Origin: a virus
Lineage: Duplodnaviria > Heunggongvirae > Uroviricota > Caudoviricetes
Virus record (IMG/VR): IMGVR_UViG_2711768076_000006
Coordinates: 1-9,481 of that record
Reading direction: 5' to 3' (one strand)
DNA: 9,481 nt
This document shows, one piece after another, positions 1,027-8,806 of the stretch (position 1 is the first letter of the stretch; each line of letters begins with the position of its first letter). The position numbers were made by a program, and so were the translations under genes. The notes under the pieces were generated by a model. The model did no database searches, had not been told where the DNA came from, and saw nothing but the letters and a program-made list of their open reading frames with translations.

Positions 1027-1055
1027 GGAAAAAACAAAACCCGCCGAAGCGGGTT
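1027..1055 (-). terminator. Rho-independent terminator downstream of hok
   Basis: On the - strand, hairpin AACCCGC-TTCG-GCGGGTT followed by TTGTTTTTTCC, about 70 nt after the hok stop. Confidence 0.6.
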
Positions 1056-1123
1056 AAGTGCGGGTGCGTTGAGGATGCCTGACACATCAGAGGTGGCGAG
1101 GGATTTCTCCCCCGCCTGGTCTC

Positions 1124-1279
1124 TTACTCCTCAGGTTCGTAAGCTGTGAAGACAGCGACCTCCGTCTGGCCGGTTCGGATTCGTACCTCGCAGAGGTCTT
1201 TCCTCGTTACCAGTGCCGTCACTATGACGGTTAAACAGATGACGATCAGGGCGATTAACATCGCCTTTTGCTGCTTCAT
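1124..1279 (-). CDS. hokD: Hok/Gef-family type I toxin, 51 aa membrane peptide
   Basis: MKQQKAMLIALIVICLTVIVTALVTRKDLCEVRIRTGQTEVAVFTAYEPEE is a canonical Hok sequence and matches HokD/RelF as I recall it. AAGGAG lies 9 nt upstream of the ATG at 1279. Confidence 0.85.
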   Translation of the reverse strand: MKQQKAMLIALIVICLTVIVTALVTRKDLCEVRIRTGQTEVAVFTAYEPEE

Positions 1280-1336
1280 AGCCTGCTTCTCCTTGACCTT
1301 TCGGTCCGTAAGAGGCAATCTATATGTGACGAGCAT
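1124..1336 (-). CDS. mok: Mok reading frame (in-frame N-terminal extension of hok that couples hok translation)
   Basis: ATG at 1336 in frame with hok adds MLVTYRLPLTDRKVKEKQA, which resembles the N-terminus of chromosomal Mok peptides (mokC MLNTCRVPLTDRKVKEKRA from memory). Confidence 0.55.
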   Translation of the reverse strand: MLVTYRLPLTDRKVKEKQAMKQQKAMLIALIVICLTVIVTALVTRKDLCEVRIRTGQTEVAVFTAYEPEE

Positions 1337-1378
1337 ATAGGGGCCTCACTTCGATTTATAGTCGGGTGGGGCTTTTAT
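1315..1378 (+). ncRNA. sok: Putative Sok-type antisense RNA opposite the mok translation start
   Basis: Inference from hok/sok architecture. + strand TTGACC at 1293-1298 is a possible -35, but no good -10 hexamer follows at 16-19 bp spacing. Imperfect hairpin GCCTCAC (1343-1349) / GTGGGGC (1365-1371) is followed by TTTTAT. Boundaries are approximate. Confidence 0.3.
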
Positions 1379-1471
1379 CTATCTGCCGTTGGTGTTCATG
1401 CCCGAGGCAGATAGCCTCAAGCACCCGCAGCAATTCTACTTAACTCTGCCGTTACAGCAAACCGTTTTCGC

Positions 1472-1617: not shown

Positions 1618-2376
1618 TCAAGTGCCTTTCCTGGTCCAGCCATATTTTTTGAATGCAGGCGCCGCTTCATCGGTTTGTAGCCATTCTGCAAATCGACGGG
1701 TTTCATCATTTGCATCCTGACGTACTGTAATGTTCATATCACGCCATATCACGTAGTCTGGCGCTATTTCCACGACATCACCAATTTCTGGATTACTGGC
1801 TGCCCAGTCAGCCCAGGTTATCCAGACATCTGCTCCAGGCTGATTCTCAAGAGCCTTACGTGCAGTTCCGCTATTGGGCGCATATAAAATAATATTTTTT
1901 CGGATTGCGGCGACAGTTTCTATATTCCCTTTACGTCCGGCAATATCTTCCCAGACGCCAGTGCCTGATGTATTACTGGTACCACCACCATCATTAACAA
2001 TTACGCCAATCCCGGGTCTGGTCAGGTCGTCAATACTCCGGATATTTTTAGGATTACCTTTCTTTACCAGTAAAATACTTTTTCGCAGATAAAGAGGCTG
2101 AATATCTTTTTCACTGAAGCTGTCTTTATGGTCCCGAATGATAGCCAGAGCAGATTGTTCTGATGCGCCAAACAAGATATCTGCATTTTTTTTGGCATCT
2201 TCATTCCATTTGTTCTGTGGACCGTAATGAACGTTCACTATAACACCTGTTTTTTCGGCATAAAGTTTGGCTGCTTCAAGCAAGGCTGTATGCGGGCCAC
2301 CAGGACCATACAGATTGATATCAGCATAAGCAGCAGAAGACAGGAATATTAAAAAACCTGCCATTATGTTCCTCAT
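1618..2376 (-). CDS. Secreted periplasmic solute-binding protein, ModA/WtpA-like, with no cognate transporter genes in the window
   Basis: 252 aa. N-terminal signal peptide MRNIMAGFLIFLSSAAYA with an AYA-D cleavage site. Mature N-terminus INLYGPGG...AEKTGVIVNV and C-terminus ...FKKYGWTRKG follow the ModA-type binding-protein pattern as I recall it. AAGGAG 7 nt upstream of the ATG. A 260-bp AT-rich region lies upstream. Confidence 0.85.
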   Translation of the reverse strand: MRNIMAGFLIFLSSAAYADINLYGPGGPHTALLEAAKLYAEKTGVIVNVHYGPQNKWNEDAKKNADILFGASEQSALAIIRDHKDSFSEKDIQPLYLRKSILLVKKGNPKNIRSIDDLTRPGIGVIVNDGGGTSNTSGTGVWEDIAGRKGNIETVAAIRKNIILYAPNSGTARKALENQPGADVWITWADWAASNPEIGDVVEIAPDYVIWRDMNITVRQDANDETRRFAEWLQTDEAAPAFKKYGWTRKGT

Positions 2377-2540
2377 AAAAAACTCCTTTTATTGGTTATC
2401 ATGAAATAAAATTATAAACACCACAAATAATATATATTATATCCAGATAAACTTATCCGACTTTACCTCGTGCATAGCTTGTTATTTAAAGTTAACAAAA
2501 TAAGGAAAATTATACGCATATTGAAGAGTATAAACCTTAC

Positions 2541-2568
2541 ATGTTGATTACATTTTTGTAATCAACAT
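2541..2568. promoter_or_regulatory. 12-bp perfect inverted repeat (ATGTTGATTACA-TTTT-TGTAATCAACAT), candidate operator upstream of the solute-binding-protein gene
   Basis: Seen directly in the sequence, about 170 bp upstream of the ATG at 2376 in the AT-rich region. A TATAAT hexamer lies between the repeat and the gene on the - strand (near 2505-2510). Confidence 0.4.
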
Positions 2569-2794
2569 CCTGTTTGGAATAGCCAGCCTTTAATGGATAA
2601 CTATTTCTGACAATGCAATGAGTATAATCAAGTCCATCTTCCACTGAGAATTAGAGGCGGCATGCTTTTTCCGGCTCTTGCCGGATATCCGTAATTGTCC
2701 ATAATCTGCAGATTTATACCTTCTGCATGACCTGTCAGCGAAAATTTGTCCGGTGTTTCTACGGGAATGACATCAAAAGTTACACGCACTCGCG

Positions 2795-3106
2795 TTACCG
2801 TGTAGACCTACTTTCCTGCACTTGCAAGATCACAGTGGTGTAACCGTAACAGGAATTTATTCTCTGGACCGGCAGTAAATCCCTGAGTGGCGTGGTTCCC
2901 ATATCAATTTCCCGCCAGGCAGCCTCCATTGCCAGCGTACAGGCTGGAGCCATGACCTGCCCTTTAAATCTGGCCCGACCATCCCACCGGACGTGTTCTT
3001 CTCCCCTGAACTTAGGTACAGTCATCTCCAGTGGCACAAAAGTGTCAGCGCCATGATTTTTGACCGTTATCGCGCTACGGATATTTTGTTGACTGGTGAA
3101 AATCAC
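2795..3106 (-). CDS. Hypothetical protein (103 aa), weak call, possibly a gene remnant
   Basis: Track ORF that starts with GTG and has no clear RBS; no family recognised. It is in the same frame as the DUF1627-like gene but separated from it by at least three stop codons. Confidence 0.2.
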   Translation of the reverse strand: MIFTSQQNIRSAITVKNHGADTFVPLEMTVPKFRGEEHVRWDGRARFKGQVMAPACTLAMEAAWREIDMGTTPLRDLLPVQRINSCYGYTTVILQVQESRSTR

Positions 3107-8390: not shown

Positions 8391-8448
8391 TTTCTGGTGA
8401 CTTTTGGCGGTATCAGTTCTACTCCGTGACTGCTCTGCCGCCCTTTTT
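8391..8448 (+). ncRNA. dicF: DicF small RNA (antisense inhibitor of ftsZ translation) with its 3' terminator
   Basis: TTTCTGGTGACTTTTGGCGGTATCAGTTCTACTCCGTGACTGCTCTGCCGCCC plus a T-run closely matches the K-12 DicF sequence as I recall it. It sits immediately upstream of dicB as in Qin. Confidence 0.7.
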
Positions 8449-8617: not shown

Positions 8618-8806
8618 ATGGAAACGTTATTACCAAACGTTAATACGTCTGAAGGTTGTTTTGAAATTGGTGTCACTATCAGTAACCCTGTATTTACTGA
8701 AGATGCCATTAACAAGAGAAAACACGAACGGGAGTTATTAAATAAAATATGCATTCTTTCAATGCTGGCCCGTTTACGTCCGACACAAAAAGGATGCTGG
8801 CAATGA
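8618..8806 (+). CDS. dicB: Cell division inhibitor DicB (62 aa)
   Basis: METLLPNVNTSEGCFEIGVTISNPVFTEDAINKRK... matches DicB from memory. GAGGA upstream of the ATG at 8618. Confidence 0.85.
   Translation: METLLPNVNTSEGCFEIGVTISNPVFTEDAINKRKHERELLNKICILSMLARLRPTQKGCWQ

Follow-up and report, generated by a model that had tools for sequence, protein, structure and literature searches.

Coding frames at the locus

The minus strand of the window, by which we mean the whole 9,481-nucleotide stretch of viral DNA analysed here, carries a hok open reading frame of 51 amino acids plus stop (1124..1279) that encodes a Hok/Gef membrane toxin. The frame runs from an ATG at 1279 to a stop codon at 1124, with the translation MKQQKAMLIALIVICLTVIVTALVTRKDLCEVRIRTGQTEVAVFTAYEPEE. 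Besides its place in the list of open reading frames, the 51-aa Hok matches Pfam family PF01848 (HOK_GEF) with 82.9 bits against a cut-off of 22, a protein comparison found it identical to K-12 HokD (51/51 residues, 100%), and RefSeq annotates hokD at this position. The mok frame (70 aa; 1124..1336, minus strand) forms an in-frame, N-terminal extension of Hok. Its ATG occupies 1336-1334, and a Shine-Dalgarno sequence, GAGG, is located at 1347-1344, 7 nt upstream of the ATG. The assignment of mok draws on the open reading frame list, on 83% identity between the 70-aa Mok and the MokW/HokW product of phage VT2-Sakai, and on the layout, the in-frame arrangement being common to mokC/hokC and mokW. 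An initial annotation of this DNA had considered Hok and the in-frame Mok evident from the translation. The frame from 1279 to 1124, the start at 1336, the Pfam score and the HokD identity all agree with that view; judged from these sequences, Hok and Mok in the window are real and far beyond chance.

As in other members of the family, hok would be translated via mok through translational coupling, and the window Hok would be expected to be toxic. In a published Hok catalogue, the toxic control is HokD, which is identical to the window Hok (bioRxiv 10.1101/2025.08.07.668861). At the Tyr47 codon in hok, UAC precedes a G, giving the TadA editing motif UACG (1141-1138, minus strand), and A-to-I editing there would change Tyr to Cys. 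Such recoding is reported for hokB and mentioned for hokC, hokD and hokE in the same preprint (bioRxiv 10.1101/2025.08.07.668861).

The hok mRNA and its leader

The full-length hok mRNA is predicted to extend over about 394 nt on the minus strand, from a +1 at G1426 to approximately 1033, based on the start of an Rfam match, a terminator scan and a minimum free energy (MFE) fold. The terminator scan placed an intrinsic terminator, followed by a U-run, at 1055-1038 (minus strand). The putative hok promoter (1433..1461, minus strand), read from the sequence and from the corresponding column of the homologues, combines a -10 hexamer TAGAAT at 1438-1433, 6 nt ahead of the +1, with a weak -35 hexamer TTTGCT at 1461-1456; in the alignment, a TAnnnT hexamer is kept at the hok -10 column of the homologues. 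The initial annotation had assigned the locus to 1124-1400. A locus is indeed present there, but its extent is larger, with an mRNA from 1426 to about 1033 and a promoter that reaches to about 1461.

For the transcript 1426-1033, an MFE of -167.3 kcal/mol was predicted (z -8.1). Its first 12-13 nt, the tac element GGGUGCUUGAGG (1426-1415, minus strand), pair with the fbi element CCUCAACGCACCC (1074-1062, minus strand) in both the MFE and the centroid fold. Hence, the tac-fbi closure that is typical of the hok family is also predicted for the hok mRNA of the window. In full-length hok mRNAs, such 5'-3' closure holds the molecule inert (PMC9841398). Two further Rfam matches fell into the hok 3' UTR. 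The match to isrK (1034-1115, minus strand; 27.2 bits versus a gathering score of 50) is sub-threshold, consists largely of the terminator hairpin and is probably due to chance, and the match to rsmX (20 bits), likewise sub-threshold and mainly terminator hairpin, was discarded.

The Rfam model named "sok" (RF01794) matched the window over its entire length at 1426-1277 on the minus strand (103.9 bits, E 2.5e-23; gathering score 59). This match spans the region from GGGUGCUUGAGG at the mRNA +1 to the hok AUG and is located on the hok-mRNA strand. The model behaved in the same way at the reference loci: K-12 sokC, K-12 sokB, Sp5 hokW and an R1-type plasmid locus scored 87-118 bits, on the hok strand in 4/4 cases, which in K-12 is the strand opposite to the annotated sokC and sokB. 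Matches in the reference loci included L003 602-754 (minus), L004 667-818 (minus) and L068 182-353 (plus). RF01794 therefore describes the hok leader, which includes the Sok-complementary segment, rather than Sok itself, and the strand of the match is no argument against Sok. Strand calls made with this model can mislead Sok annotation, as a match on the apparently wrong strand is to be expected and gives no position for Sok. A plus-strand match of RF01794 at 1368-1479 (16.7 bits, E 0.23) was considered as Sok and discarded as noise.

The Sok antisense RNA

The candidate Sok gene encodes an antisense RNA of about 55 nt on the plus strand (1328..1382), identified through a covariance model, homology to sokC, its predicted fold and covariation. 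From G1328, which aligns with the 5' end of sokC (annotated at 16952-17010 in K-12), the RNA would begin with a single-stranded 5' tail, GACGAGCAUAUAG, that is complementary to the mok start region. A predicted hairpin follows at 1343-1372 (plus strand), and after it comes the tail UUUUAUCUAU. As the initial annotation had noticed, the hairpin is imperfect, with one bulged U and several G-U pairs. The predicted fold has a free energy of -22.1 kcal/mol (z -4.24), much as for SokC and SokB. Owing to the bulged U, the Sok hairpin escaped the terminator scan, which did find the hok and paa terminators.

We built a Sok-specific covariance model from 33 distinct Sok homologues, with the window left out. 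Its full length aligned to plus-strand positions 1328-1382 of the window (54.1 bits, E 2.2e-14), with nothing above 7.7 bits in the rest of the window and no match on the opposite strand at 1328-1382. Thus, the covariance-model scan proposed in the initial annotation found the hok leader on one strand with RF01794 and Sok on the other with the specific model. The earlier placement of Sok on the plus strand across the mok start is upheld by this match and by alignment of the promoter to those of sokC, sokW and R1; its position, given as about 1315-1378, is better set at about 1328-1382, the 5' end having been put 13 nt too far upstream because the -10 box was included.

Strand preference and covariation are consistent with this assignment. 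Among 55 distinct homologous loci, all 55 gave the Sok segment a more stable predicted fold on the Sok strand (mean -27.7 kcal/mol) than on the hok strand (mean -19.1 kcal/mol). Covariation was assessed in an alignment of 18 sequences of the short-hairpin Sok forms, using a 12-pair helix and 500 shuffles. On the Sok strand, 95.3% of the helix is paired, compared with 75% of cells on the hok strand. Three of its pairs change on both sides (e.g., AU in 9 sequences versus GC in 9), one U-G pair is invariant in 18/18 sequences, and the observed covariation score was reached by 0/500 shuffles. When the partners were slid along the alignment, pairing dropped to 35-53%. The helix contains 43 G-U cells against 0 A-C cells, i.e., a strand bias.

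The Sok promoter and its weak -10 hexamer

Upstream of Sok, alignment to sokC, sokW and R1-type loci points to a promoter at 1293..1321 (plus strand) with a -35 hexamer TTGACC at 1293-1298, a 17-nt spacer and a -10 hexamer CAATCT at 1316-1321, which is followed by ATATGT and the +1 G1328. The TTGACC hexamer had already been named in the initial annotation, together with the remark that no good -10 hexamer follows at the expected spacing, and both points hold. The -35 matches the consensus at 5/6 positions. CAATCT, at 17 nt, matches at 2/6 and keeps A-11 and T-7 only. A consensus sigma-70 scan of 1000-1700 returned 0 promoters; as it demands at least 4/6 matches in each hexamer, it is blind to the Sok and the hok promoter alike, and we identified both promoters through homology instead. 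Two other candidates for the -10 were ruled out, namely TATATG (1321-1326), which would require a 22-nt spacer, and AATCTA (18-nt spacer), which lacks the T at -7.

The window Sok promoter is nearly identical to that of K-12 sokC, TTGACC-17-CACTCT-ACATGT-G; the differences are three single bases, located in the spacer, in the -10 and immediately 3' of the -10. Among homologous Sok -10 hexamers, 44/55 have the T at -12 (TAnnnT) that is absent from the window. These TAnnnT forms are TTGCCT-17-TAATCT or -TAACCT, the latter being that of sokW, and TTGACC-18-TAATCT, whereas the window and nine loci of the hokC clade have TTGACC-17-CA[A/C]TCT. The R1-type promoter, which was aligned separately, reads TTGCGC-17-TATCCT. 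Comparison of the window with L005-L065 thus yields three length-linked forms, TTGCCT-17-TAnnnT, TTGACC-18-TAnnnT and TTGACC-17-CAnTCT. Relative to sokW, the window/hokC type has gained one base, which betters the -35, and has lost another, so that the T at -12 is gone. In the alignment these changes look like paired indels, and since together they preserve the length, they also preserve the overlapping mok frame. On a crude position-weight score, the commonest type exceeds the window type by about 1 bit, and the TTGACC-18 type exceeds it by 3 bits.

How much Sok such a promoter would make bears directly on the control of the toxin. A T-12C change silences the hok promoter of R1 (PMC9841398), which suggests that the window Sok promoter may be weaker than that of sokW or R1. 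If the loss of T-12 had crippled it, little Sok would be made and the locus would represent a hok gene under unusual, non-Sok control, with Hok restrained mainly by tac-fbi fold-back, by the low strength of the hok promoter and perhaps by dependence on TadA editing at the Tyr47 codon. The poor consensus match, the empty promoter scan, the TAnnnT kept in most homologues and the R1 precedent would fit such a scenario, as would the UACG motif at the Tyr47 codon, editing of hokD being reported in the Hok catalogue (bioRxiv 10.1101/2025.08.07.668861). However, C at -12 occurs together with the same -35 and spacing in the hokC clade, and SokC is nonetheless transcribed and needed. 5'-end sequencing in vivo recovered its annotated start exactly (PMC2912661), mokC/sokC double-stranded RNA has been captured as one of the top dsRNA clusters for RNase III (PMC7373196), and knock-down of sokC by CRISPRi is strongly deleterious (bioRxiv 10.1101/2020.03.04.975888). 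Moreover, the sub-clade combines its better -35 with a spacer of optimal length (17 nt), the Sok hairpin and tail of the window are intact, and the allele is common, occurring in about 600 genomes. We consequently regard a crippled Sok as improbable. In the hokW-sokW system, HokW became toxic once the corresponding -10 of sokW had been mutated, and growth was partly restored by sokW provided in trans (PMC8621323).

We conclude that the Sok promoter of the window is a normal sub-clade variant, and that the weak -10 is a trait of the sub-clade rather than decay of this copy. The results give no support to the concern, raised in the initial annotation, of a missing or defective Sok: the covariance match is strong, the promoter is nearly that of sokC, and sokC is transcribed and deleterious to knock down.

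Genomic setting and distribution

The 451-base region surrounding the locus recurs at 100% identity in many E. coli chromosomes, where the coding sequence is annotated as hokD; RefSeq annotates neither mok nor Sok there. In one such chromosome, the neighbours are the racR repressor gene, a cro-like HTH gene, ydaT-like and replication genes, the paa adhesin gene, hok, DUF968, RusA and Q, with everything from the cro-like gene through Q on the hok strand. Such neighbours are typical of an E. coli lambdoid prophage of the Rac/Qin-like kind, with the locus in its early-right region. We searched 5,426 complete E. coli genomes for the 106-nt Sok segment from promoter to terminator (at least 80% coverage) and found it at at least 99% identity in about 600 of them, many being O157:H7.

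Elsewhere in the window, the DicF sRNA (RF00039, 71.5 bits, full length) is located at 8392-8443 (plus strand) with dicB next to it at about 8618-8806; this stretch is a Qin/Rac-type immunity region. Between the replication genes and hok, a gene for a 252-aa AcfC-family adhesin (paa in RefSeq; 1618-2376, minus strand) forms cargo with its own terminator at 1612-1591 (minus strand), and a frameshifted fimbrial pseudogene lies just upstream of it at about 2537-3070.

Several further observations concern hok loci in other sequence records. E. coli-like hok loci (80-96% protein identity) were present on non-E. coli contigs (L010, L029, L033, L058 and L064), several of them very short, labelled as a Veillonella parvula MAG, Xanthomonas pisi, Acinetobacter idrijaensis, Candidatus Scatousia and a Haemophilus MAG; these are probably cases of contamination or mis-binning. 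Tandem complete hok/sok pairs about 500-630 nt apart occur in L034 (639, 1159), L038 (700, 1329) and L051 (259, 798). Such pairs were seen in Pseudocitrobacter and Photorhabdus, and there are Photorhabdus species with many copies.

The setting also bears on the role of the module, which in a prophage could be element maintenance or help with lysis at induction. Enrichment of hok in prophages has been described (bioRxiv 10.1101/2025.08.07.668861), and hokW-sokW of Sp5 aids lysis upon prophage induction (PMC8621323). With the parts as described above, the window locus might likewise serve mainly host lysis at prophage induction rather than element maintenance, if early-right read-through in the hok sense overrode or occluded the Sok promoter so that Hok was made. 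Early-right transcription in the hok sense direction, consistent with the common strand of the genes from the cro-like gene to Q, makes such a role plausible. On the other hand, the Sp5 locus lies elsewhere in its phage genome, 57.5 kb into a 60.9-kb record, and a terminator follows paa in the window just upstream of the hok promoter. Overall, we consider lysis help as the main role to be a tentative option with the odds somewhat against it. A related and still less likely idea is that the loss of T-12, common to the hokC clade and coupled to the insertion that improves the -35, represents a deliberately weaker or differently tuned antitoxin promoter, through which, in a prophage whose early-right operon reads hok in the sense direction, the release of Hok could be coupled to induction, as a lysis aid like hokW-sokW, and not to element loss.

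A model for the control of Hok

Together, these results are best explained by a type I toxin-antitoxin module of the hokD type, complete with hok, mok and the Sok gene and carried by a lambdoid prophage of E. coli, a reading to which we assign a probability of about 0.9. What was observed for the window allele itself comprises its sequence parts, the homology of these parts and predicted structures that show covariation. Transcription, processing kinetics, RNase III cleavage and toxicity of this allele would follow by analogy with R1, hokW and hokC; for R1, sokW and sokC, Sok is made and unstable, the duplex is cleaved by RNase III and the hok mRNA is processed at its 3' end (PMC9841398, PMC7373196, PMC8621323, PMC2912661).

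Accordingly modelled on these systems, the weak promoter with the -10 TAGAAT would give rise to a stable hok mRNA of about 394 nt (1426 to 1033, minus strand), in which pairing of the 5' tac with the 3' fbi would render mok and hok untranslatable. Slow 3' trimming, as in plasmid R1, may then allow the mRNA to refold and expose the mok ribosome-binding site, with translation of the in-frame hok depending on that of mok. Meanwhile, the promoter inside mok (TTGACC, 17 nt, CAATCT; plus strand) would produce the approximately 55-nt Sok (1328-1382), whose 5' tail could form a duplex with the mok start region, leading to a block of mok and hok translation and to cleavage by RNase III. Hok would thus be made, and the inner membrane damaged, only once the short-lived Sok is no longer replenished. 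Such a shortfall could follow loss of the element or, as for hokW-sokW, prophage induction. Two points weigh against the proposal of a complete, Sok-controlled module: CAATCT has only 2/6 consensus positions and lacks the T at -12 that 44/55 homologues have, and, as cited in a preprint, earlier tests of chromosomal hok loci gave no post-segregational killing (bioRxiv 10.1101/2025.08.07.668861).

Comparison with known hok/sok systems

The hok/mok/sok family, the name hokD and a close prophage relative have all been published, and the locus is already known. With hokD annotated at this position in thousands of E. coli genomes and with hokC/sokC and hokW/sokW studied experimentally, it has little discovery value in itself. 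Its practical use lies in the strand behaviour of RF01794, in the absence of mok and Sok from the RefSeq annotation and in the intact form that it provides of the truncated K-12 hokD.

The hok/sok (parB) locus of plasmid R1 has the same set of elements as the window, with its Sok promoter at the same place, and RF01794 matches both. R1 hok/sok differs in being plasmid-borne and in its better -10 (TATCCT), and its leader is too diverged from that of the window for the two to be linked by nucleotide BLAST; a distant-mode nucleotide search of plasmids with the window locus returned no R1-type locus, and the R1-type reference was obtained by tblastn. An IncF/IncHI1B plasmid (L066) has, at 701-771, a 70-nt stretch that is 82% identical to the hok 5' tac/leader, and no Hok ORF lies in its vicinity. 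This stretch may be what is left of a hok leader, and the plasmid was dropped as an R1 reference, as only the tac-like 70 nt are present.

The chromosomal hokC/mokC/sokC (gef) locus of K-12 has the same layout as the window, including the in-frame mok. As described above, its sokC promoter shares the -35 TTGACC, the 17-nt spacer and a C at -12, with a -10 of CACTCT versus CAATCT, and the Sok architecture of 5' tail, bulged hairpin and U-rich tail is the same. The alignments to R1 and hokC/mokC suggested in the initial annotation thus found the Sok promoter at the same place and a sokC-like hairpin with its U-rich tail in the window. The two loci share about 82-85% nucleotide identity, several Hok residues differ, and the hairpin sequence of the window Sok differs from that of sokC through compensatory changes. 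In K-12, IS186 adjoins hokC.

Like the window locus, hokW/sokW of Sakai prophage 5 (VT2-Sakai; PMC8621323) is prophage-borne, and the two are 85.9% identical in DNA over the locus, with a nearly identical tac, leader and hok promoter. In contrast to the window, the sokW promoter (TTGCCT-17-TAACCT) has the T at -12, and the sokW hairpin is longer by an inserted arm of about 21 nt. The position within the phage genome differs too, as noted above.

A further relative is K-12 hokD (relF) in the Qin prophage, with the same Hok protein, 3' UTR with fbi and terminator as the window and the same position in the prophage, flanked by the replication genes and DUF968/Q. Identity to the window (K-12 1644000-1648000, L002) runs from the terminator to about 1292, 13 nt upstream of the hok ATG, beyond which the K-12 sequence is the end of relE (relBE adjoins). 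K-12 hokD accordingly has no mok, Sok gene, tac or hok promoter. It is this copy, together with the disruption of other K-12 hok loci, that could lead one to view the window locus as a remnant, decayed or hok-like by chance, in which no part works. Such a reading is very improbable and already contradicted by the window sequence, in which promoters, tac, fbi, mok, hok, Sok and terminators are all intact and which, upstream of about 1292 where the K-12 homology is lost, keeps matching intact loci. On the aligned sequences, the window holds the intact form of the locus and K-12 hokD (relF) a truncated copy of it.
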